Shown piece by piece: positions 1 to 51,911 of a stretch of 64,000 nt of DNA; within the stretch, counting starts at the first letter, position 1; each line of letters opens with the position of its first letter. The position numbers and the translations under genes are program-made. The DNA is taken from the UHGV virus genome UHGV-0072281. One strand, written 5' to 3'. Source of the stretch: a virus. Below the pieces are notes generated by a model. It was given only the letters and a program-made list of their open reading frames with translations, was not told where the DNA came from and searched no databases.

Positions 1-103
1 GGCAGCGGCTGCGCCTACCAATAGCTTCGGTTCTTTCGGTAGCTTTGGTGCTCCTGACAATATTTCCACCACAGGCGGTGTATTCGGCGCTTTCGGCGAG
101 TAA
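1..103 (+). CDS. 3' end of an ORF entering from upstream; C-terminus is an FG-repeat tail (..AAAAPTNSFGSFGSFGAPDNISTTGGVFGAFGE*)
   Basis: Open frame (phase of position 2) from window edge to TAA at 101-103; shares APTNSFG motif with the next gene. Confidence 0.5.
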   Translation, partial: AAAAPTNSFGSFGSFGAPDNISTTGGVFGAFGE

Positions 104-122
104 AAATATCAAGGATTAATAA

Positions 123-1502
123 ATGAAAATTATTGAATTCTATAAATCGTTTCTTAAATCACAAGGATTCGATTTCGAGAACGATTTGCTTACCCGTGAT
201 GACGGTGAGCCAGCAGAATTTACCTACAACAAAGTGAAGCGCCGCCTGGCGCTTCCAACGTCGGCAATGATTAAGAAAGGAATGGAAGATGACGACGGGC
301 GTGAATGTCAGGCATTCCATCCTCTCTGTGAATCTGTGCTGGCCGGTGAATCGGGCACTATCCGTTTCTTGAAGAAATCCATCAATGCGAATTTGTTCAT
401 TCGTTCCTTTGCGTTGATTGACGCTATTCTGGAAACGGCTGCCAGCGGTAAAGCAATTCGTTCTGCGGCGTACAAGAAGTTCTTAACGGAACAGATTTGT
501 GAAGGGATGAAAGATCCGACGTTTGACGATCGTTTGGTAAAATCCTGGGAAGCAGTTAAACAATACGTTTATGGCTTATTGGAGCGCGATAAAAAGCACA
601 AAGTTACCCAGCTCTTTATTGCATCTGATTTAGTTATCGACGGTGTGAAGTTTAACCGTGTGGCTAATTATCGCCATATGTTCGAAGAAGAATCCTTAGA
701 CGGTACAGCAATGTACTTCTCGGTGAAGCTTCAACGTAAACAGGATAAGGTGATTATTCATCGCCTGCTGACCACTGTGTTCGGTTGGTATCCAAGCGTC
801 ACCGGTTCTAACGATTCCCGTCCGTACTTCGGGTCGTTAGCACGCGGTTGGGCACAGTACGTGGTAAACTACAATAACGTAGTGAAAGGGCTACGTGACC
901 ACACGCCACTGCGTCCGTTAGACGATGAATGGATTTCACAGCTGGACAACATGGAGATTTACGATAATGTCATTCAGACCTTGCCGTATAACACCGGTCC
1001 ACGTTCAGACAATCCTGAGCGTGATACCAGTGCCCGTGAGTTCAGAATTGACAGATCGTCGGCAACGGAACAGATCCCGACGAAGAAGGCGTCTGATGCG
1101 GATAAACCGAACCTGGACGATCCGGTAGAGTTCTTCCGTGCGCGTAAACAACGGATGGCTCCAACGAACAGCTTCGGTAATCTTTCTCCAGCAATGCAGC
1201 GTTTTGTGGAAGAACACAACACGACTAACCTGGCTGGTACAGGAATGGTAGGACGGATTTCTGTAGTAGATGCTTTCGGTGGCGAGCGTAAGAACAGCGG
1301 TTTTGGTGACGTAGGTGGATTCGGTCAACCGAACTCGTTGTCGAATACGTTTGGTGGTGGGCACTCTTTTGGCGGGGGTTCATCATTCGGAGGCAGCTCT
1401 TTCGGCAGCCAGCCTCAGTTTGGTTCGTCTAGCGGATTTGGTAGTAGTACAGGCAACCCATTTACCAGTGCTTCTACGAGTCCGTTTAAGAGCTCGTACT
1501 AA
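123..1502 (+). CDS. hypothetical protein with ~110-aa C-terminal Gly/Ser-rich FG-repeat tail
   Basis: 459-aa ORF, AAGGA SD 8 nt upstream of ATG; C-terminal region carries ~10 FG dipeptides (SFG, GFG, TFG, QFG); followed by terminator. Confidence 0.85.
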   Translation: MKIIEFYKSFLKSQGFDFENDLLTRDDGEPAEFTYNKVKRRLALPTSAMIKKGMEDDDGRECQAFHPLCESVLAGESGTIRFLKKSINANLFIRSFALIDAILETAASGKAIRSAAYKKFLTEQICEGMKDPTFDDRLVKSWEAVKQYVYGLLERDKKHKVTQLFIASDLVIDGVKFNRVANYRHMFEEESLDGTAMYFSVKLQRKQDKVIIHRLLTTVFGWYPSVTGSNDSRPYFGSLARGWAQYVVNYNNVVKGLRDHTPLRPLDDEWISQLDNMEIYDNVIQTLPYNTGPRSDNPERDTSAREFRIDRSSATEQIPTKKASDADKPNLDDPVEFFRARKQRMAPTNSFGNLSPAMQRFVEEHNTTNLAGTGMVGRISVVDAFGGERKNSGFGDVGGFGQPNSLSNTFGGGHSFGGGSSFGGSSFGSQPQFGSSSGFGSSTGNPFTSASTSPFKSSY

Positions 1503-1509
1503 GGTAGTA

Positions 1510-1540
1510 AAAAGAAGGGACACTGTCCCTTCTTTTTTTA
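1510..1540. terminator. bidirectional intrinsic terminator between convergent genes
   Basis: Hairpin gaaggga-cactg-tcccttc flanked by A-run upstream and T-run downstream. Confidence 0.7.
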
Positions 1541-1861
1541 ATCGTCTACGATGGTGCTAAGAATACTGGCGACGACCCCGGCATCTGGAACTATCAGCTC
1601 TGTAATCTCAGGGGTGAAGTTCATAGGGTCTTCCAAGTTATTGAGTAGCATCATTGGGTAGATGATGTTTTCGGCATAACCTTTCAGTTTGCAATAAGCG
1701 TAGAAATTGTGAATCTCAGGATAACTGAATCGTGGGTCTACAGTTTCTACTTTAGTTTGTGGGTGTTTACGCAGAAAATCTGTGTAATCGTGCAGCACTT
1801 TCCAGGTGCTGGTATAGGGCGCAGGTATGATTTCTTTTAGGGTAATAAAATCTTCAAGCAT
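1538..1861 (-). CDS. hypothetical protein
   Basis: 107-aa ORF, AGGAA SD upstream on minus strand, convergent with 123-1502. Confidence 0.6.
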   Translation of the reverse strand: MLEDFITLKEIIPAPYTSTWKVLHDYTDFLRKHPQTKVETVDPRFSYPEIHNFYAYCKLKGYAENIIYPMMLLNNLEDPMNFTPEITELIVPDAGVVASILSTIVDD

Positions 1862-1924: not shown

Positions 1925-4165
1925 ATGAAAACGCCAGTTGAGCTATTGAGCAGCGTCGCTGACCGTGAAGTCAATATCGCACAGGTATCAGGTGCAAGGG
2001 CATCGATGGTAGGTAACCATATGAAGTCCTCGGTCCCGATTGACCATCCTGAGCCGTCACCTCACTTTACGGGCGCAGATACCAATTACCACGATTTTCT
2101 GTTTAACGATATTGTGGAAGACAGTGGGAGCATCTGTCATTACACAACTAAGGAAGGTAGACAACGTCGTGCAACGTTTACCCGTTATGGTCGTCGTGGG
2201 GATTCCCGTGCGCTGGAACACGCGATATTCTTCCGTCGTGCAGAATGCCGTATTCCGGGCAAAACAATGATAGACGTTATCGAGATTAACTTTTATACTA
2301 ACCACGATAACGTGTTCTCTTCTGAGAAATGGGAATCACCAAAACTGCGTAGTTTGTTACGTGGTGAAACCGACCAGTTAGAAAAGGATGAAATCCTGAC
2401 GACGATGCCGTGCATGGTGGATGGTGAATTCGCAGACAGTGTGGTGCTGCCGACGGTTACCATCTCACACCCAGACATTATCGAGGATTCCTACACGATT
2501 TCCGAAGAAGCGGCACAGAAGCTTCACGGGTATGGGTTGAAGGTTATCGAGAAAACGTTGCGTGAAGACGAATTCTTACTGGATACCTACGGCTATAACG
2601 ATCCCGAGGGGAATCGTGTACCGCGCTATTTCCCAGACGTGGGTGAAGCGATTCGTGATGACGGGTTAGTTATCGCTTCTCGTCGTTTCGATGACCTGTA
2701 CGCAGCGATTGATGCAACCTTAGGGGAAACTCAACACGTTTCTCCGTTCTTCGATAGCTGTGATTACGTGGATGCCGATCCGATACACTATAAAGCACGT
2801 TTGGAAAACAACCACGAACTGATGGAACGTAGCGGAACGCGCATTGTTGATATTCAGGTTTGGCGTGATGAAACGTCGTGCGGTAATGGAACGAATAACA
2901 TTAACTGTACTGAAGAGAACAAACGTGAGCTTGACAAATACGCATTGGCGTTAAAGGACTACTACAATGCGATTGTTCGCTTCTATTTCTCCGTGTCGAG
3001 AGATAAAAACGTTATCTGGTCTCCCAAAGCGTGTGTGTTGCTGGAGAAAGCTTTTGCATCCGAAACGTACGAAGTCTACGCAGAGTTTCGTGAAGAAATT
3101 CGCGGGGTGATTGAAGATGCAATTCGTCGTGGCGAATACGGTAAAGAGAACGTAAGTCAACAGATTATCTCCAAATTGACTTCACCTGTTCAGCGTGGAT
3201 TAAGCGATCCCATCAATACGTACACAATTCGTATCGCGGTACGTTATCCGATCCCGGTGACGGTGTCTTCTAAGATTACCGACCGTTCGGGTACGAAAGG
3301 GATTGTGGGTCGTGTACTGCCAGTTGAACAGATGCCAATTAACGAGTTCGGCGAACGTGTTCACGTACTACGTTCAATGAACGCCGTAATTCGTCGTTCT
3401 ACCTACGCCGCGCTGTTCCACATGTATTGGTCAGCAGCATCTGAACAGCTGAAGATGCGTCTTAAACCGATGCTGGATGAAGGACGCATTGGTGAGTGTT
3501 GGGAAATCCTGATGGACTACCTTTCACGCTATAATCCAGAATGGGCGAACACGTTACAGGCTACGCATCCTACGGAGGATTTGCAGCGAGAACTCTTTAA
3601 AGAGATTTACGATTTCACCATCCGCATTTACCTACCTCACGAACTTGATGACACTCCGGTGGAAATCAGTGAACGTTTAGGTGAGTTTAAACCCCGTAAG
3701 TCGAAACTGCTTATTACCAATTACGATGGTAAACAGGAATGGACAAAAGACGAGTTTTACGTGGGTGGTGTAGAAACATTACGGCTTGATAAAACGGGAC
3801 GTGAATTCTCAAGTATTTCGTCGATGTACCTGAACTACCTGGGCACGATCGATGCGTCTAACCAAGGACGTGGTTCGTATCCGGTAAACTATAAAACGCT
3901 AAAATGGGCTGGTCCTTCGGAAGAACGACTATTAGCGGGTTATGGTCCAGGTAACTACGAAGAGGTTCACGATAGGGCAAATAACCCTGCTGTGCATCGA
4001 GAGATTTTAGTAGGGCTGTACCGATCTCAAACTCCTTCCAATCCGGGCGTACTGGTAGACCGGAATAAGCTCCCATTAGGAGATTCGCAGATTGACAGAA
4101 TGATGAAAAACATTCACAGCTGCGAAGGGTTTGAATTGGTGAAAATGAAAAGGGGCGAAGAATAA
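1925..4165 (+). CDS. multisubunit RNA polymerase beta-subunit-like protein (C-terminal portion of a split beta)
   Basis: 746 aa; AAAGGAG SD; motif SSKITDRSGTKGIVGRVLPVEQMP resembles conserved bacterial beta motif GDKxAGRHGNKGVxSKIxPxEDMP; immediately followed by beta-prime-like gene (rpoB-rpoC order). Confidence 0.55.
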   Translation: MKTPVELLSSVADREVNIAQVSGARASMVGNHMKSSVPIDHPEPSPHFTGADTNYHDFLFNDIVEDSGSICHYTTKEGRQRRATFTRYGRRGDSRALEHAIFFRRAECRIPGKTMIDVIEINFYTNHDNVFSSEKWESPKLRSLLRGETDQLEKDEILTTMPCMVDGEFADSVVLPTVTISHPDIIEDSYTISEEAAQKLHGYGLKVIEKTLREDEFLLDTYGYNDPEGNRVPRYFPDVGEAIRDDGLVIASRRFDDLYAAIDATLGETQHVSPFFDSCDYVDADPIHYKARLENNHELMERSGTRIVDIQVWRDETSCGNGTNNINCTEENKRELDKYALALKDYYNAIVRFYFSVSRDKNVIWSPKACVLLEKAFASETYEVYAEFREEIRGVIEDAIRRGEYGKENVSQQIISKLTSPVQRGLSDPINTYTIRIAVRYPIPVTVSSKITDRSGTKGIVGRVLPVEQMPINEFGERVHVLRSMNAVIRRSTYAALFHMYWSAASEQLKMRLKPMLDEGRIGECWEILMDYLSRYNPEWANTLQATHPTEDLQRELFKEIYDFTIRIYLPHELDDTPVEISERLGEFKPRKSKLLITNYDGKQEWTKDEFYVGGVETLRLDKTGREFSSISSMYLNYLGTIDASNQGRGSYPVNYKTLKWAGPSEERLLAGYGPGNYEEVHDRANNPAVHREILVGLYRSQTPSNPGVLVDRNKLPLGDSQIDRMMKNIHSCEGFELVKMKRGEE

Positions 4166-6264
4166 TGAAGGCGACTCCGGTTCACGTAAGAGACTTGTGC
4201 AAGTTGAATTCGGATCAGGTGTGGCTACTTCGGGGCGTTTACGACGTGTCCTTCGACGATGGGGTCACGTTGAGAATGTCTGGTCGACACATTAAGTTGA
4301 GCTGGCCGTATTGGGGATTAACCCAGTTTTATCCCCAAGTGCCAATCTCGTCGAACATGGCGTATAAGCATGGCGACACGGCAACTGACGATGCGCATCT
4401 GCGCTTTATGTCGTTGGCAGCTGTAGCAGCACGTAAGGCCGGAGTGGATCTGGCCGATACCCGTTACCTGTTATCACAGCACGTTTATGCGAATGCGTTT
4501 AACCTGACGGTGAAAAACCTGTTGTCGTATTGTGTTACCATTGACTACGATACGATGATGGAGATTTATCAGCATGAAAACTTCAAGCTGATTATCGAAT
4601 GGTCTAAACTCTATCCGACGGGTTACGATGAGGAGGGTAACGATAAGGTAGAAGAAGCCTATCAGCTCATTGAGAAAATCTTCAAAGATCCGAGACTCTC
4701 AAACAACCCAGTCGTCATGTCTGTGTTAGACCGCACACTGAAAATGGATCAGATTCTCCAGGCTTACATTCGTGGTAAGACTTCAGAGATTGACTCCCGT
4801 GTGTACTCTAACCAGGTATGGGAAGGTTTCTTCACCGGCTTGCATTCTGTTATCAGTCGACTGAAAGAAGCAGGTGCGACATCGCGTTCTCACCTGTATA
4901 ACACCGACAAGATTGCAGACGCAGAGTACGCATCGCGTAAGTTGCAGTTAGCGGCTAACGTGCTGATGTTCTTCGATTACGAAGACTGTGGTACACATCA
5001 CGTACACAGACACACCTTTACGAATTCGCCGTTGGAAGAAGCGAAATTCAAAGCGATGAAAGGAATGCGTTATCGCTTCGAAGGTACTGGTGGTCCGTGG
5101 TTACGATTCGAAGATGGTGAGTTTGAGAAAGTCTTGAACAAACCTATCGAGTTCCGTACCGCGATGTGTTGCAAAGGAATGTCACGACAGACTATCTGTG
5201 CAACGTGTATGGGTGACTTGATTTATAACCTGTCACCTGGCACATCGCCGGGTCACCTTGCGTCAACCGCAATCTCGGAAAAGGGTACTCAAGGTATTCT
5301 GTCGACGAAACACCTTGACTTCCTGCGTTATCTGCTGAACTTGGTCTTGTCGCCAAGAATGCGTGATTATCTCACGGAGTATAAGCACAACTCCGTTAAA
5401 GGGATTAGTTTACTGGAGAAGCCGCAATACGGTACCTGGGATGAATACCAACTAGTAATTTCGGATGAAGTGTATTCAGAGATTAGCCAGATTGCGTATC
5501 ATGAAGACCTGGACGATATTGATGAAACGGCACTCCCGGAAATTAATGACCTTACGTTTGTTCGTTTAGATGCAGAAGGGAATATACTGGCAGAAGATCC
5601 GATTGACGTTCGAATGGGCGTGTGCGGTAACTTCTCTAAGTCGTTCCTTCGCTTCTTCTTGAAGAATCGTGATAAGCTCGTATTCCCCAGCAAGAAAACG
5701 GTGCGTGTTCCGCTAAAAGGATGGAAACCGTCCTGGCCGATCCTAATTTATACGAATCGGTCTGAATCTATGGCGGAGTTTGTAGCAGGGTTGGAATTGA
5801 TTTTACGTTCGGTAGCATCGGACAAGTCAGATAACTTCGAACAGTTCTCGGACGAGTCAATGCGTTTGAGCAAGAAGAGTGGTAAGGTTAAACCGATTAC
5901 CCTCGTTCAGATGCGTGGTGCCACGGAGAAACAATGTACTCATGCGTTGTTCTACGTGTTCAAATATATCCAACGTAAGCTCAAAGGGATTCCGATGACG
6001 CACATCGCGATTATGTTGGCAATCTCTCGTGTTGAGTCACCTACTAACCCATTCCCGGCAGTAGGGTTTGACAGTGAGGATGCTGATGCCGCAGAAGGAA
6101 AACGTTTCGAAGATCACAATACGCTGATTGCGATGCGTTCTGCAATTCCGATGTTGTTGTTTGAGGGACAACAGAAGAACTTGGACAACGTACGTTTCTA
6201 TACGTCACGTAAACGTCCTGCTTCGTTGTACGACAATTCTGTCGCGGCAACGATTATTGAGTAA
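4165..6264 (+). CDS. multisubunit RNA polymerase beta-prime-like protein (C-terminal part: bridge helix, DCGT, trigger loop)
   Basis: 699 aa; ATGA start/stop overlap with upstream gene; FFDYEDCGTHH resembles E. coli beta-prime TEDDCGTHEG; CCKGMSRQTICATCMGDL...AISEKGTQGILSTKH resembles CDTDFGVCAHCYGRDL...SIGEPGTQLTMRTFH. Confidence 0.75.
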   Translation: MKATPVHVRDLCKLNSDQVWLLRGVYDVSFDDGVTLRMSGRHIKLSWPYWGLTQFYPQVPISSNMAYKHGDTATDDAHLRFMSLAAVAARKAGVDLADTRYLLSQHVYANAFNLTVKNLLSYCVTIDYDTMMEIYQHENFKLIIEWSKLYPTGYDEEGNDKVEEAYQLIEKIFKDPRLSNNPVVMSVLDRTLKMDQILQAYIRGKTSEIDSRVYSNQVWEGFFTGLHSVISRLKEAGATSRSHLYNTDKIADAEYASRKLQLAANVLMFFDYEDCGTHHVHRHTFTNSPLEEAKFKAMKGMRYRFEGTGGPWLRFEDGEFEKVLNKPIEFRTAMCCKGMSRQTICATCMGDLIYNLSPGTSPGHLASTAISEKGTQGILSTKHLDFLRYLLNLVLSPRMRDYLTEYKHNSVKGISLLEKPQYGTWDEYQLVISDEVYSEISQIAYHEDLDDIDETALPEINDLTFVRLDAEGNILAEDPIDVRMGVCGNFSKSFLRFFLKNRDKLVFPSKKTVRVPLKGWKPSWPILIYTNRSESMAEFVAGLELILRSVASDKSDNFEQFSDESMRLSKKSGKVKPITLVQMRGATEKQCTHALFYVFKYIQRKLKGIPMTHIAIMLAISRVESPTNPFPAVGFDSEDADAAEGKRFEDHNTLIAMRSAIPMLLFEGQQKNLDNVRFYTSRKRPASLYDNSVAATIIE

Positions 6265-26433: not shown

Positions 26434-27705
26434 ATGGCAAATTTCGCAAAAACTCGCGCCGCTCGTGAATCGATGGAAGCGGCCGATGAAGTAATCGACG
26501 GTATCAGCAACGTTGAACCGGCAGAAGAGAACCTGGACGTCCAGCTTGCAGACGTAGCCTCTATCGACGGTCAGCTCGAACAGCTGGAAACCGACGGTGA
26601 AACCCTGGCTGCCGATACTGAGCGTACTGAAGACGCTATCGATCAGGCGGAAGAAGCCGTTGCTAACGGTGAAGAAATGCCGGAAGAAGCGGTTGCCCTG
26701 CAAGAAGTGGCTCAGGAATCCATCTCACGTCGTTGGAACCTGGAACGCACCAAACTGGCTCGCGAATCCTATCGCCGTGGCCGTGGCATGACTGCTGCTG
26801 CGCAGGAAGGCTGGAAAGAAACCCTGAAAGGTCTTTACGAGCGTTTCATTCAGTTCTGTAAAGAAGTGATTGCGAAGATCAAAGACCTGAAACTGAAATA
26901 TTTCAACGTCGGTAAGACCGCACAGAAACGTGCGAAGAAATATCAGGAAATGCTGCGCAAGCTGGGCAAACAGAAAAATGATACCATCTCCGGTGGCTTC
27001 ATTACTAAGCTGTCCATTGAAGGTAAATTCGATGCAGCTGGTTCTATCGCTATCGCGAAAGAAGTAACCTCTGGTAAAGCTAAAGGTGCTATTAGCGCAC
27101 TGGAAAAACAAGCTGGTGAAGCTGTTACTGCTGTAACCAAAGGTGACGATGAAGCATTCAAAGCAATGCGTGGCGATCAGCCGGTAGAACTGTTCGGTAA
27201 AGCAGCGTCTAAACTGCATAACCTGCCGAACTTTGAAAACGGCGATGCGTCTAAACTGCTGGCTCTGCCGGGTAACGCATACGTTCAGTCCGGTACTAAA
27301 GAACTGGCTGGCGGTCACAAATTTACCGCTGTTGCATTCATGAGCACTGGCGATGCCTCTGACGATAAAGACGTGAAAACTCCGTCTGTTTCTGAAATGG
27401 CTGGCGCTGCTTCTTCTCTGGAATCTATCGGTAAAGGCTTCGAAGCTGTACTGAAAGACTTCCGTGCTTACGATGCAGAGATTGCAAAACTGCAACAGGC
27501 CGCTGAGAAAGCTGCTAACGCGCTGAACAGCGAAAAAGACGAAAGCAAGTGGGATGGCCTGCGTAATGCTCGCCAAGCTGCTGACCAGTCTGTTAAGAAC
27601 TACCAGACCCTGAACCGTGCCGTTAGTTATGTTGCTAACACCGTAATTAGCGGTTTGAACGGTTACCTGGGCGCTGGTATCGGTGCTTACGAAAAATCTA
27701 AGTAA
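26434..27705 (+). CDS. abundant-looking paralogue A: acidic N-terminal propeptide-like region, coiled-coil middle, conserved C-terminal GAGIGAYEKSK
   Basis: 423 aa; AAAGGAAA SD; visibly enriched for ctg/cgt/ggt/aac/gaa codons; N-term MANFAKTRAARESMEA..; motif ALQEVAQESISRRWN. Confidence 0.9.
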   Translation: MANFAKTRAARESMEAADEVIDGISNVEPAEENLDVQLADVASIDGQLEQLETDGETLAADTERTEDAIDQAEEAVANGEEMPEEAVALQEVAQESISRRWNLERTKLARESYRRGRGMTAAAQEGWKETLKGLYERFIQFCKEVIAKIKDLKLKYFNVGKTAQKRAKKYQEMLRKLGKQKNDTISGGFITKLSIEGKFDAAGSIAIAKEVTSGKAKGAISALEKQAGEAVTAVTKGDDEAFKAMRGDQPVELFGKAASKLHNLPNFENGDASKLLALPGNAYVQSGTKELAGGHKFTAVAFMSTGDASDDKDVKTPSVSEMAGAASSLESIGKGFEAVLKDFRAYDAEIAKLQQAAEKAANALNSEKDESKWDGLRNARQAADQSVKNYQTLNRAVSYVANTVISGLNGYLGAGIGAYEKSK

Positions 27706-27785: not shown

Positions 27786-29048
27786 ATGGCGAATTTCTAC
27801 AAAAACAAAATTGCTCGTGAGTCAATGGAAGCGAACTCTACTGTCGTTCCAGATGGTATTGAGCTGCCAGCAGAGTCTATCGAAGGTACTCTGGCTGATA
27901 TCGAGCACGACACTAAACCGATCGAAGCGCTGGACGCTGACGCAGAGCTGCTGGCGGAAGACGGCGACGAAACCGATGCGCAGCTGGACGTTCTGGACGA
28001 AGCTCAGGCTTCCGCTGACGGCGAAGGTGGTGAAGATGGCGACGATCAGATGGACGCTGAAGAAGACATGCCGGACGACGCTGCTAAAGCGCTGGATGTT
28101 GCTCAGGAATCCATCCGTTCTCGCTGGAACTTCGAACACCGTTCTTCCGTTGCTCACGAATCTTACGGCGCTCGTAACCGTCGTCAGGTTGCTCGTGAAT
28201 CCCTGTGGGACGACATTAAAGCCTTCCTGAAACGTTTCTGGGAATGGCTGAAAGAGCAAGGCCGCAAACTGAAAGATCGTTGGCTGAAATTCCACAACCA
28301 GGGTAAATCTATCCAGGCTCGTGCGAAGAAATACGACGAAGCTATTCGTAAACTGGGCAAACAGAAGAAAGATGAAATCTCCGGTGGTTTCATCAAGTGC
28401 CTGTCTGTTGACGGTAAGTTCGTTGGTAACGATGTACCACGTCTGAAAGACGCGATGAGCCGTGTTTCTTCTTTCTACAGCAAACACGTTCCAACTCTGC
28501 TGGCTTCTGGTACCGCTCTGGTTGCAGACGTATCCAAAGCTAACGGTGCTCAGGCTGAGCAACTGCGTGCTGAATTTGCTGCGCTTTCTAAAGAAGATGG
28601 CGACAAAGAATTCCGCCTGGGCAACATGGTTATGCAGACCAACTTCGATGAAGATGGTGGCTTTAGCTTCACTCACGTTGAAGCAGAAAATGCTGTTGAA
28701 ACCAGCGTGAAAACTCCGTCTGTAAGCGAACTGGCTAAACTGAACGGTTTCTTCACCGATCTGGGTAAACAGATTGAGAAGAACGTTCTCGAATACCGTA
28801 AGACCGAGCAGGCTCGTGAGAAGTTCGCTCAGTCTATCGAGAAACTGCTGAAAGAAATCGATAACGTCAAGATCGATGAAAAACCAGAACTGACTGAAGG
28901 CGTACGTGTTGCACGTCGCTATGTTAACAGCATTCGCAGCGCAGTATCCCTGTGCGAGAAAGTTGTTGCTTCTGCTCAGAAAAACCTGGTTAGCGGCGTT
29001 AGCGGTTATATCAGCGCCGGTATCGCAGCGTACGAAAAGTCTAAGTAA
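27786..29048 (+). CDS. abundant-looking paralogue B of 26434-27705
   Basis: 420 aa; N-term MANFYKNKIARESMEA.., motif ALDVAQESIRSRWN, C-term SAGIAAYEKSK; same codon bias. Confidence 0.9.
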   Translation: MANFYKNKIARESMEANSTVVPDGIELPAESIEGTLADIEHDTKPIEALDADAELLAEDGDETDAQLDVLDEAQASADGEGGEDGDDQMDAEEDMPDDAAKALDVAQESIRSRWNFEHRSSVAHESYGARNRRQVARESLWDDIKAFLKRFWEWLKEQGRKLKDRWLKFHNQGKSIQARAKKYDEAIRKLGKQKKDEISGGFIKCLSVDGKFVGNDVPRLKDAMSRVSSFYSKHVPTLLASGTALVADVSKANGAQAEQLRAEFAALSKEDGDKEFRLGNMVMQTNFDEDGGFSFTHVEAENAVETSVKTPSVSELAKLNGFFTDLGKQIEKNVLEYRKTEQAREKFAQSIEKLLKEIDNVKIDEKPELTEGVRVARRYVNSIRSAVSLCEKVVASAQKNLVSGVSGYISAGIAAYEKSK

Positions 29049-49193: not shown

Positions 49194-51911
49194 TTAGAGA
49201 GTTTCATCGCTGTTGTCATCTGCACCGGTATCCGTCTCGTCCGTGCCTTCAGTTGAAACGTCTTCTTCCGTTGCCGTATCGGTTTCCGTCGTTTCATCGT
49301 CAGTCATGTCCAAGTCTTCATCACCGCCCAGATCGTCACCACCTAAGTCCTCATCGCCTCCTAAGCCGCCGTCATCTTCAGTGCCGCCGCCAAAGTCGCT
49401 GCTACCGCCGAAGTTATTGGCGTCTTCAGGATTCAGATCAGCCGCTTTTGCTAACGTTTCAACTTTCCCTGTTACACGTTTTGCCAACTGAATCAGTGTC
49501 TTAGATGCAGACGCAATTTCGTCAGAGATCATCTTAACGTTTTCACCGCGTTTCTCTTCATCGTAAATCAGGTCGAACATATCGTTCTCAATACCCTGAC
49601 TACGTAACCAGTGGCGCGCGTAGAAGGTCTTAACCATCGTCTTGAGGTCATCAGGTGACATTTCAATACCTTCGTTCTGAAGCATATTAGCAATGTCATC
49701 CGTGACCACCAGATCTGCAAGTTTCTCGATAAATTCATAGCGTTTATCGAAGAGATCAGCTTGAGATGCTGTTGCAGAAGTATCAGGTGGTGGCAAGGTG
49801 ACCTTCATACCGTTGATAAACTTCGCCATATACTCTGACGTTTGTTTTGTCATCTCTTCGCTAGATACATTCGGATTCTGCTCACGGATATACTCAACGA
49901 TAATACGGATGAGTTCTGCTTGCAGTTTCGGTGAAGCTTGCAGACTGTTTGTAACGTAGCGCGTAAGCGGGGTTGAGAGGATTTCCTGTTTCTTCACAAT
50001 CTGTTGAGTAACCAACAGCGATTTAGAATAAATCTGAGAAGCAAACTCCAGGTTCTCCGGGGTAAGTACAAGGTCAGGATCAACACACGCGATGTGACAT
50101 GTACGGCGTAACAGGTTCTCGTCAATTTGTTGATCAGGAACTTTATACTCCGGCGTGGTATCAGACACAGACACTTTGTGGCTGGCGTAGTAATCGTTAC
50201 CCGTTACGTTAAAGGCAATCCCCGCGTTAGCTCCCATTGCCCAAGCATCGTTAATATCCCCCCACATCGGTAAACGACGGTTGTAGGAGTTAAGGATATC
50301 TGATTTGGCTTGGTCGACAGTTTTTTGACCGTTTGCATCGTCCGGTGACAGCTCAATGTCGTACTGCATGTGACGTGCCGAGTTTAGTACAGATGAGTTC
50401 ATTGTCGCAAACAGCAGTGCCATCCTGACGGTGGAGATGATAAAAGAGCGTTCAGTGATAGAAACCCCGATACCATCTTCGTTAAAATCCGTTGCAAAAT
50501 AGCATAGGTTATTAACCGGAATGTAAACCACTTGAGTATGACGTTTTGCGAGATGACGCGCTAACAGAATACGGCCGAATGTTTCGGTAATATTCATGCT
50601 GATTTCTGCGCCACCTAGTGCCTGACTTAATGCGCGAGCAAATTCGTTTTCAGCGATTTCACCGCAACGTGTACTTAAACGGTTGGCGATTTCCGGGGTA
50701 ATGCGAGAAGTGTTCCCTAAGCCCAGATTAGAACGGTTAATGATGCTGTCCGTCATCCCGTCGTTATTCAGGTAGTTCATAAAGTTCGCATCGCCGTACA
50801 GCGAGGAGCGAGCATTGATGAAGTTACCCATGTCATCTACGATGGTCAGATAACCAATAGGGTTACGAACGTCATCGCCAATTACCAGTGGCAGCGTTGA
50901 CTCTGCGGGCAGTAAACGTTCGATGTATTCGATTTTGTTATTCTCATCCATTGAGATAATAGGAATATCACCGTACGTTTGTGTTTTCGGTGTTGACTTA
51001 TACGCCTCGTTTAAATCACCCAAGTTAATGAACCCTTTTTCAGCAGCGTCACGCTGACGGTCATCGAAAGATTGGTTAGGGTCGAACGGACTGCCACCGT
51101 TTGGTGTAGACGGCTTTTCATATGCGGCTTGCTCTAATTGCCCGTACAAACCCGTACGTGCGTTCTCATGCGCGATACGACGATACAAATCCGGCAGCAT
51201 GGTAATGCGCGGGTTATCGGTAATCGTGATTTCCATCTGGAATTTATCCGAGAACATCGAATCGTGCTTACCGAAATCGATTTTCAACGTCTGAGGACCA
51301 GTAACGGCTCCGTGTAAACGGTTGAGAATTGATTCCACACCAACTCGCTGCCCTTCTTTCGGCGCATTAATAGGCCCGAGAATACCAAGCTGTTGTTCGA
51401 AGAACGCCGTTTGGGAACGACGAATAGATTCAGTAGCGACCTTTGTATTCAGACCGAATAATTGGTCGAAGCCGGTATCCGAGATTATCATCACTGGACT
51501 TGCGCCTTTGGTTTTTAACGCATCGTAAATCCACTGATATAATTTCTTAGGTAGCTGACGAATGTTATCGTGATAATCACGGGTCGGTGTCAGTAGCGCG
51601 TTACGCAGATCAATGGGGATGTCCGCGAAGTTGTCGTAAATCAACGTCGTGTTGATTAAGTCTTTTGTTGATAACAGGCTCGAAGTTGCAATAGTAACGA
51701 TTGTTTCGAGTTCAGGTAACGCATCAAAGATACGTTCCGCATTTTTGATAGTACGAATACGTGAACTCGCAATTGCCGTGAGTTCTTGACGTGTTGGCGT
51801 AGAACCACCCTCGCTACGCGTACCGCGTTGTTGCTGAGGTGCTGGGCCCGTAGTTTTACGAAGAATTGCAGCTACGGCGGGGTCGCCCGTTAATTTACTA
51901 ATATCGTCCAT
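49194..51911 (-). CDS. hypothetical large protein with extremely acidic Gly/Asp/Glu/Thr-rich C-terminal tail
   Basis: 905-aa ORF; C-terminal ~75 aa NNFGGSSDFGGGTEDDGGLGGDEDLGGDDLGGDEDLDMTDDETTETDTATEEDVSTEGTDETDTGADDNSDETL. Confidence 0.8.
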   Translation of the reverse strand: MDDISKLTGDPAVAAILRKTTGPAPQQQRGTRSEGGSTPTRQELTAIASSRIRTIKNAERIFDALPELETIVTIATSSLLSTKDLINTTLIYDNFADIPIDLRNALLTPTRDYHDNIRQLPKKLYQWIYDALKTKGASPVMIISDTGFDQLFGLNTKVATESIRRSQTAFFEQQLGILGPINAPKEGQRVGVESILNRLHGAVTGPQTLKIDFGKHDSMFSDKFQMEITITDNPRITMLPDLYRRIAHENARTGLYGQLEQAAYEKPSTPNGGSPFDPNQSFDDRQRDAAEKGFINLGDLNEAYKSTPKTQTYGDIPIISMDENNKIEYIERLLPAESTLPLVIGDDVRNPIGYLTIVDDMGNFINARSSLYGDANFMNYLNNDGMTDSIINRSNLGLGNTSRITPEIANRLSTRCGEIAENEFARALSQALGGAEISMNITETFGRILLARHLAKRHTQVVYIPVNNLCYFATDFNEDGIGVSITERSFIISTVRMALLFATMNSSVLNSARHMQYDIELSPDDANGQKTVDQAKSDILNSYNRRLPMWGDINDAWAMGANAGIAFNVTGNDYYASHKVSVSDTTPEYKVPDQQIDENLLRRTCHIACVDPDLVLTPENLEFASQIYSKSLLVTQQIVKKQEILSTPLTRYVTNSLQASPKLQAELIRIIVEYIREQNPNVSSEEMTKQTSEYMAKFINGMKVTLPPPDTSATASQADLFDKRYEFIEKLADLVVTDDIANMLQNEGIEMSPDDLKTMVKTFYARHWLRSQGIENDMFDLIYDEEKRGENVKMISDEIASASKTLIQLAKRVTGKVETLAKAADLNPEDANNFGGSSDFGGGTEDDGGLGGDEDLGGDDLGGDEDLDMTDDETTETDTATEEDVSTEGTDETDTGADDNSDETL

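Follow-up and report, generated by a model that had tools for sequence, protein, structure and literature searches.

Genes at the start of the window

We analyzed a 64,000-nucleotide stretch of the virus genome UHGV-0072281, which is called the window below, and in particular the two genes at its start, whose products end in low-complexity tails rich in Phe-Gly (FG) dipeptides. Coordinates refer to the window unless another locus (L005 and the like) is named. The closest cultured relatives are the Erwinia phages Asesino and phiEaH2, with about 75% nucleotide identity and about 73% amino-acid identity. SPN3US-like Salmonella phages and many further chimalliviruses come next, and 163 phage records were obtained in total. 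The window begins inside the "nuclear shell" block, a conserved group of genes, of a chimallivirus (a nucleus-forming jumbo phage) that is uncultured and related to Asesino. The features of the two genes are as follows.

2..103, plus strand: 3' end of the picA/imp1 orthologue, comprising the last 33 codons with the stop codon at 101-103; it encodes an FG tail with 5 FG
111..116, plus strand: Shine-Dalgarno-like AAGGAT, 6 nucleotides ahead of the ATG at 123 (direct reading)
123..1502, plus strand: gp70-family gene, 459 residues, from the list of open reading frames; phrog_3520
123..992, plus strand: globular N-terminal domain of an orphan fold, residues 1-290
318..359, plus strand: motif HPLCES..GESGT (H66-T79), invariant alignment columns
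993..1256, plus strand: low-confidence linker, residues 291-378, with a predicted local distance difference test (pLDDT) score of 38-65; the first FG lies inside APTNSFG (nucleotides 1155-1175)
1257..1499, plus strand: FG tail, residues 379-459, with 9 FG and 11 Phe; pLDDT below 50

The window itself carries only the last 33 codons of the first gene, and the complete gene (567 residues) was taken from L005, a 226-kb metagenomic scaffold that is 100% identical to the window across 9 kb. The full-length protein matched phrog_3141 with an E value of 1.7e-126, residues 1-534 lying on positions 2-505 of the 510 positions of the profile. PhiPA3 gp63 (E 4e-170) and Asesino gp48 matched the same profile. 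The order of the genes is SbcD, gp66, ChmC/Imp6, gp68 as a subunit of non-virion RNA polymerase (nvRNAP), PicA, gp70, a small gene in reverse orientation, nvRNAP beta, nvRNAP beta' and a helicase. This order was unchanged at every locus inspected, and the synteny around gp70 was kept in at least 45 loci. Because of the full-length profile match and the shared gene order, the upstream open reading frame is an orthologue of PicA/Imp1, the protein importer of the phage nucleus.

PicA/Imp1 (phiKZ gp69, PhiPA3 gp63, Goslar gp174) has been described as an essential and selective import factor of the phage nucleus. Its punctate localization on the shell and the need for it in cargo import are known only in phiKZ, PhiPA3 and Goslar. 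PicA gathers in a single punctum, where it co-localizes with stalled cargo; according to the PicA paper, oligomerization of PicA could not account for the punctum, and further components must be missing. The AlphaFold2 model of the orthologue studied here is folded through a long helix at residues 495-529, and residues 529-567 have a pLDDT below 50. The model gave no significant fold match in the PDB, in line with the literature, where the fold of PicA is described as novel. The protein thus resembles known PicA/Imp1 in its full-length match to phrog_3141, in its slot between the gp68-like nvRNAP subunit and gp70, and in its orphan fold. It differs in possessing a 38-residue FG tail, whereas the PicA tails of the model phages are short and non-FG, or absent.

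The second gene encodes a protein that matched phrog_3520 (E 5.9e-130), into which PhiPA3 gp64 also falls, and a tblastn search with the protein reached PhiPA3 gene 064 (E 2e-13). It is a member of the family of phiKZ gp70, PhiPA3 gp64, 201phi2-1 gp126, Goslar gp173 and Asesino gp49, which we call the gp70 family. In PhiPA3, gp61 (ChmC), gp63 and gp64 are localized on the nuclear shell and come down together with ChmB, and virions do not contain them; for phiKZ, gp70 appears in a list of nuclear proteins. The two genes had been tentatively connected with the phage nucleus by an earlier reading made from the letters of the DNA without database searches (the sequence-only reading). As far as location is concerned this guess was a good one, since both families are shell-localized in PhiPA3.

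AlphaFold2 modeled residues 1-290 of the 459-residue protein with a pLDDT mostly above 90, residues 297-459 with values below 65, and residues 386-459 with values below 50. No Pfam domain was found in this protein, a sequence search of the PDB gave no match, and the model had no significant PDB fold match. The motif HPLCES..GESGT is nearly invariant in the gp70 family. It was invariant across 37 orthologues and recognizable in PhiPA3, and its version in Goslar gp173 is HPLSE..GESE; this motif may be a functional site. In the segment alignment of the 37 orthologues, the linker was found to contain a pair of conserved short helices, DP..FF.. and L[ST]PxQQ..SL..A.GG. The protein is like the rest of its family in its N-terminal domain, in the motif HPLCE..GESGT and in its synteny, and most members end in low-complexity sequence. 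The composition of the tail is different: it is rich in Gly, Ser and Phe with 10 FG in the present protein, M/Q/P-rich in the Pseudomonas phages, and LG-rich in Asesino and SPN3US.

A mini-domain like the peripheral subunit-binding domain of 2-oxoacid dehydrogenase E2 (PSBD/E3_binding, PF02817) at residues 353-383 (nucleotides 1179-1271, LSPAMQRFVEEHNTTNLAGTGMVGRISVVDA) was considered as well and was rejected. Its score was 14-16 bits against a Pfam gathering cut-off of 23.7 (Pfam E 0.014), and a profile made from 21 orthologue segments matched no such domain in the PDB. We treat this likeness as a coincidence.

FG content and conservation of the tails

Frame 2 of the window reads ..AAAAPTNSFGSFGSFGAPDNISTTGGVFGAFGE up to the stop codon at 101-103. 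The last 33 residues of this upstream protein contain 5 FG, compared with 1.07 in shuffled sequences, and none of 5000 shuffles reached this count. In the 459-residue protein, FG occurs at positions 351, 385, 394, 400, 410, 416, 422, 427, 433 and 439. Residues 379-459 hold 9 FG compared with 2.7 in shuffles (9 was reached by 0 of 5000), and they consist of 25% Gly, 25% Ser and 14% Phe with six charged residues. In the globular parts of both proteins, FG was at the chance level. FG-rich tails on both open reading frames were what the sequence-only reading had reported, and the counts, which exceed those of every shuffle, bear this out. In the AlphaFold2 models, both tails are predicted to be disordered (pLDDT below 50).

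No further FG-rich protein was found in the 64-kb window. When about 95 kb of the phage was scanned, ChmA, PicA and gp70 were the only real genes that reached at least 3 FG per 40 residues.

The heptapeptide APTNSFG, noticed earlier, is indeed present in both proteins, and its coding differs at 4 of 7 synonymous sites. Phe is encoded by both TTC and TTT, Gly by four codons (GGT, GGC and GGA among them), and Ser by five codons. Tandem Repeats Finder detected no repeat in positions 1-1600. Because there is no tandem repeat in the DNA and the codons are mixed, only the protein is repetitive, as had been argued before in opposition to DNA slippage. The two genes had also been regarded as tandem paralogues, and this view had to be given up. 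BLASTP aligned only fragments of the tails, the profile-profile comparison by hhalign gave a probability of 0.2%, and the proteins belong to separate PHROGs (phrog_3141 and phrog_3520). We reject the paralogy of PicA and gp70 because no similarity was found outside the low-complexity tails.

The 11 Phe residues of the gp70 tail are spaced by 7.0 +/- 1.55 residues, with a coefficient of variation of 0.22, and only 2 of 20,000 shuffles were equally even. We then compared the tail positions of the window lineage with those of a lineage of about 80% identity. Phe was kept at 9 of 11 positions, as against 10 of 20 for Gly and 5 of 19 for Ser. By this comparison Phe is the best-conserved residue of the tail, and the tails show signs of selection. 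FG nucleoporins and other phase-separating domains are known for such a pattern, in which aromatic stickers are conserved at even distances and the polar spacer between them varies freely.

Tail chemistry among orthologues

The tails were surveyed at 45 loci and in 146 representatives; the representatives came from an exhaustive search, which covered 1.84 billion proteins and gave 345 family members at an E value of 0.001 or less. In the gp70 family, the last 80 residues were of low entropy in 108 of the 146 representatives. The chemistry of the tail varies by lineage among FG, LG, NPF, M/Q/P, WG and mixed-charge R/D types, as shown here.

FG tail: window phage and relatives at about 80% identity
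LG tail: Asesino, SPN3US
NSLLD/LG tail: Machina, ChrisDB
NPF tail: CR5, Phobos
M/Q/P tail: phiKZ, PhiPA3, Simmy50, Proteus phage 10
P/Q/M/W tail: Goslar
WG tail: FLC9 and others
Mixed-charge R/D tail: 36 of 146 representatives

Tails of the FG type by strict criteria were found in 9 of the 146 representatives, including literal SLFG/GLFG, MFG and NPFG repeats in Asn/Gln-rich spacers. The sequence-only reading had staked its case on conservation of the FG tails in orthologues. Taken to the letter, this expectation failed: FG is kept only within the window lineage, and orthologues without an FG tail exist. The conserved feature is a low-complexity tail whose chemistry matches between the two proteins, not FG itself.

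Phages of Erwinia amylovora alone show five tail types. Because five types occur within one host, the host does not dictate the tail chemistry, and we rejected a chemistry set by the host.

Co-variation of the tails

The PicA and gp70 tails were compared in 23 representative genomes. For tails of the same genome, the centered composition cosine was 0.34 as compared with -0.07 +/- 0.07 after permutation (0 of 20,000), and the number of shared 3-mers was 2.9 as compared with 1.56 (1 of 20,000), in permutation tests that ignore shared ancestry. The contigs of distant FG-type gp70 proteins were also fetched, and the tails of the cognate PicA proteins were read from them; these are the last three of the following pairs.

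Window phage: PicA FG; gp70 FG
Asesino: PicA GLGGG; gp70 GLGGG
Machina, ChrisDB: GNSLLD common to PicA and gp70
L026, L035: PicA R/D-rich; gp70 R/D-rich
PhiPA3: PicA ends in ..LGLL; gp70 ends in ..LGLL
L035: PicA ends in ..RRI; gp70 ends in ..RRI
L065: gp70 MFG/LFG; PicA ..DNLFG..SLFGGG..DLFGGGNNFKF
L066: gp70 NNPFG repeats; PicA ..GGNPFG..NNNPFGGLKF
L064: gp70 SNMFGAPQQA repeats; PicA ..SGLFGGGTDNLFSAP.. (an MFG/LFG pair)

On the evidence of these sequences, FG-type pairs arose independently in several lineages. A tree built from the N-terminal domain places Leu as the "sticker" from which the enterobacterial clade started. A switch from Leu to Phe in both proteins occurs twice on this tree, once in the lineage of the window phage and once in CR5/Phobos, and the R/D type originated in both proteins in two lineages.

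The gene chmA, which encodes the shell protein, lies about 11 kb upstream of the picA/gp70 pair; it was found in genomes that share about 97% identity with the window (L056:11628-13466; L057:2482-4320). In these two genomes, which represent the window lineage, the flexible N-tail of ChmA contains SSFGG and NAFGG, and its C-tail contains GPNSFGSD, which echoes APTNSFG. ChmA of Asesino and SPN3US possesses APLGG and SSLG, that is, LG at the matching positions of the N-tail. The ChmA tails show the same shift from Leu to Phe, and the two F-type lineages are almost without Leu there.

It may be argued that the tails are neutral appendages, that is, entropic spacers or solubility tags of drifting composition, and that they are alike because of a local bias in mutation, slippage, or gene conversion between the neighboring genes. 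The composition of the tails does turn over fast between lineages, the two tail-coding regions are only about 1.2 kb apart, and a single nucleotide change swaps Phe and Leu. However, the shift between Phe and Leu is limited to the tails. The protein bodies hold about 5% Phe and about 9% Leu and do not shift, and the G+C content of the loci is similar (0.45-0.51). We therefore rejected mutational or G+C bias as the cause of the switch, and ChmA shifts alike at its distance of about 11 kb. The absence of a DNA repeat and the synonymous differences within APTNSFG also speak against a neutral origin, as do the even spacing of Phe, its far better conservation than that of the spacer residues, and the independent origin of the same pairing several times. 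We consider neutral appendages to be very improbable.

Proposed role of the tails

We propose that the tails are selected cohesive tethers, that is, sticker-spacer modules which keep PicA and gp70 together on the shell, and we would give this proposal about an even chance of being correct. In the window lineage, the evenly spaced Phe residues would serve as stickers in a nearly uncharged Gly/Ser spacer, and weak multivalent contacts of like with like may form among the tails of PicA and gp70. The flexible tails of ChmA would probably join these contacts. The single punctum of PicA is one place where the contacts would keep the importer and its neighbor on the shell, and a short C-terminal tip may add a docking contact. 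Binding among the tails or to ChmA, and the organization of the import site by it, are what we infer; the analysis itself showed the identity of the proteins, non-random FG, conserved Phe, co-variation confined to the tails and several separate origins of FG-type pairs, with disorder as predicted. The proposal is also favored by the ChmC tail of the same gene block, which experiments found to be needed for condensates. Cohesive tails would thus offer a possible reason why PicA forms a single punctum.

Several observations weigh against this proposal. PicA is without a low-complexity tail in Simmy50, Proteus phage 10, Eowyn and Goslar, and because several lineages do without it, the PicA tail is not universally required. 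According to the literature, phiKZ gp70 was not co-purified with Imp1 when the proteins were co-expressed in E. coli, and PhiKZ070 was outside the top hits of an antisense screen, which included genes 065-069. The tails are short, with 9-10 FG and 5 FG. Moreover, the trend in ChmA is based on eight genomes, and clearly independent concordant switches amount to about six to eight, to be set beside permutation tests that take no account of ancestry.

The likeness to nucleoporins suggested by the sequence-only reading was correct in part. The part that stood is the clustering of FG in a disordered region of low charge; homology to nucleoporins was found neither by Pfam nor by fold searches. The tails resemble the FG nucleoporins (GLFG, SxFG, FxFG) in that the FG dipeptides are set in disordered sequence of low charge with much Gly, Ser, Asn and Gln, in that the motif residue is kept and the spacers vary, and in that a folded domain anchors the tail at the boundary of a DNA compartment. 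Literal GLFG/SLFG repeats are also present in some distant members of the gp70 family. They differ in having no homology of sequence or fold and 5-10 motifs as compared with tens, and their orthologues swap FG for LG, MG, WG, NPF or R/D. The resemblance is therefore best described as an analogy at the level of function, not as descent.

A bolder version of the analogy, and the strongest idea of the sequence-only reading, is a barrier like that of nucleoporins. The ChmA lattice would have an import pore lined or capped by the FG tails, which would make up a cohesive selective phase that is crossed by PicA-bound cargo. The low-charge FG composition rich in Gly, Ser and Asn, the even Phe residues and the presence of such a tail on the import factor itself are in keeping with a barrier. 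The GLFG, SLFG, MFG and NPFG tails with Asn/Gln-rich spacers that recur in distant family members, and the co-localization of the single PicA punctum with stalled cargo, point in the same direction. However, most orthologues, including those of every phage used as an experimental model (phiKZ, PhiPA3, 201phi2-1 and Goslar), are without FG, and many have charged R/D tails. The tails are also shorter by an order of magnitude than the FG domains of nucleoporins, and no karyopherin-like or other transport receptor is known. In the literature, no pore has been seen in tomograms, and selectivity maps to the folded surfaces of PicA and its cargo. Such a barrier seems improbable to us.

ChmC/Imp6 (PhiPA3 gp61) is a close known case from the same gene block. 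It is an RNA binder of the Whirly fold, of which the N/G-rich disordered tail drives condensates; deletion of the tail abolishes the condensates in vitro. ChmC also binds Imp1 directly. It resembles PicA and gp70 in its gene block, in its association with the shell, and in the arrangement of a folded domain followed by a disordered low-complexity C-terminal tail. In contrast, every lineage examined has a ChmC tail that is rich in N, G and Y and ends in an acidic tip, and this tail does not undergo the F/L/M/W/RD switches, and its fold is known and its RNA binding demonstrated. The window tails do not belong to the ChmC type, which combines an N/G-rich tail with an acidic tip: they are G/S/F-rich and without an acidic tip.

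C-terminal tips

The tip [FYW]x[LFWMIY]-COOH was found in 6 of 23 PicA proteins and in 6 of 23 gp70 proteins, compared with a background of 1.8% per position. A tip of the form [F/Y/W]-x-[hydrophobic]-COOH, often F-K-L or F-K-F, is common to the unrelated PicA, gp70 and ChmA (for example L018, L021, L043, L064-L066, L052, L060 and L062). PicA tips include NFKL, GFKL, DWKL, NFKF, GLKF and KLKF, and ChmA tips include NFKL (SPN3US) and DYKL (Huxley). In the same genome, the tips of PicA and gp70 are alike in PhiPA3 (LGLL/LGLL), L035 (RRI/RRI) and L020 (FNF/FSF). In Goslar, PicA, gp70 and ChmA all end in Phe (..FNLF, ..KGNF and ..VNRF). In the gp70 family as a whole, the last residue is I, L, V, F, Y, W or M in 88 of 146 proteins and R in 42 of 146.

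These tips suggest another explanation, in which the low-complexity region is a leash and the extreme C-terminal peptide plugs into a pocket of the ChmA lattice, in the manner of the extreme C-terminus of ChmA (CTS2), or into another shared partner such as ChmB. The co-variation of the tails would then be co-evolution with the pocket. A docking tip is compatible with cohesive tethers, and it is favored by the enrichment in both PicA and gp70, by the match of PicA tips with ChmA tips of sister phages, by the identity or near-identity of the tips within a genome, by the three Goslar proteins, and by the last residues of the gp70 family. It is also known that CTS2 docks on the neighboring protomer. 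On the other hand, the three tips of the window phage are unlike each other (..AFGE, ..KSSY and ..YSPN), and the ChmA tips of PhiPA3 and 201phi2-1 (GFY and SFY) are unlike the PicA/gp70 tips (LGLL). In addition, a passive leash leaves unexplained the conserved and even Phe residues and the matching of stickers over the whole tail. Strict mimicry of CTS2 is supported in a part of the enterobacterial lineages, whereas PhiPA3, 201phi2-1 and the window phage do not fit it; we set it aside in this strict form and keep it as a rival. The docking tip as the main function of the tails is, in our opinion, possible but doubtful.

The tips of ChmC are acidic-aromatic: ..PDSSFDDII, ..DSYDDFV, ..GFDDEIPNF and ..DDDDPSVAFDGLAF (L005/L003:3839-4480, just upstream of the window; L001:1759-2427; L002:881-1639; L062:10932-11720). 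The C-terminal tip of E. coli SSB, DFDDDIPF, recruits partner proteins, and the ChmC tips resemble it. In the ChmC paper, this tip region is named the electronegative cluster.

Neighboring features and other observations

Downstream of the gp70-family gene, the following features were found.

1509..1537, unstranded: strong hairpin, A-tract 5' and U-tract 3' of it, RNA fold of -18.4 kcal/mol
1538..1861, minus strand: small convergent gene, 107 residues, phrog_3455, with identical placement in all loci examined
1925..6264 (1925-4165; 4165-6264), plus strand: two genes for non-virion RNA polymerase beta/beta'-like subunits (Pfam RNA_pol_Rpb2_6; annotation of Asesino gp51 and gp52)

The hairpin has a z score of -4.5, and none of 200 shuffles folded equally well; a consensus terminator scan did not pick it up. 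Placed where the convergent genes meet, it probably acts as a terminator in both directions.

Elsewhere in the window, two adjacent open reading frames on the plus strand, at 26434-27705 and 27786-29048, encode proteins of 423 and 420 residues, both with an acidic low-complexity stretch. Their C-termini, ..GY(L/I)(G/S)AGI(G/A)AYEKSK, are nearly identical, and they look like real tandem paralogues, unlike PicA and gp70. On the minus strand, an open reading frame of 905 residues (49194-51911) contains low-complexity sequence rich in Asp, Glu and Gly close to its C-terminus, starting at about residue 839: DFGGGTEDDGGLGGDEDLGGDDLGGDEDLD.

Two observations concern the database records. The gp70 and PicA proteins deposited for several Salmonella SPFM phages (P0043-P0047, P0075-P0078) are segment-permuted and look like artefacts of assembly or annotation. 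In a low-coverage contig of the same phage species as the window (L004:9803-12055), the nvRNAP beta gene was called in fragments only; sequencing errors are likely, and an insertion is possible.

Relation to earlier work and significance

The protein families PicA/Imp1 and gp70/gp64 are already known. The terms "FG repeat" and "phage nucleus" were not joined in any paper found by our literature search. Neither the preprints on PicA and Imp1 nor the paper on the interaction network nor recent reviews treat the tails or the disorder of PicA or gp70; the journal version of the Imp1 report lay outside this search. In the papers covered, the only remark that touches on PicA tails is that one homologue, of Vibrio pVa-21, has "a long tail". 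To our reading, the FG-type tails, the diversity of tail chemistries, and the co-variation among PicA, gp70 and ChmA are apparently new.

The matched tails on the importer, its neighbor and the shell protein suggest a clustering principle, testable by mutation, that bears on how folded proteins cross the closed ChmA lattice and why PicA forms a single punctum, and the natural variants of the tails are usable for swap experiments. It can further be imagined that the tails of PicA, gp70 and ChmA make up a convergent device like a nuclear pore, that is, a cohesive phase at the single import site, open to cargo-loaded PicA, with a lineage-specific "sticker code" (FG, LG, MG, WG, NPF or R/D) as a barrier between self and non-self. 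We think that this is unlikely to be the case. If it were true, the sticker code would keep apart the import machineries of chimalliviruses that infect the same cell. Should the analogy with FG nucleoporins be correct even in part, a principle of nuclear transport would have evolved convergently in a bacterial virus.

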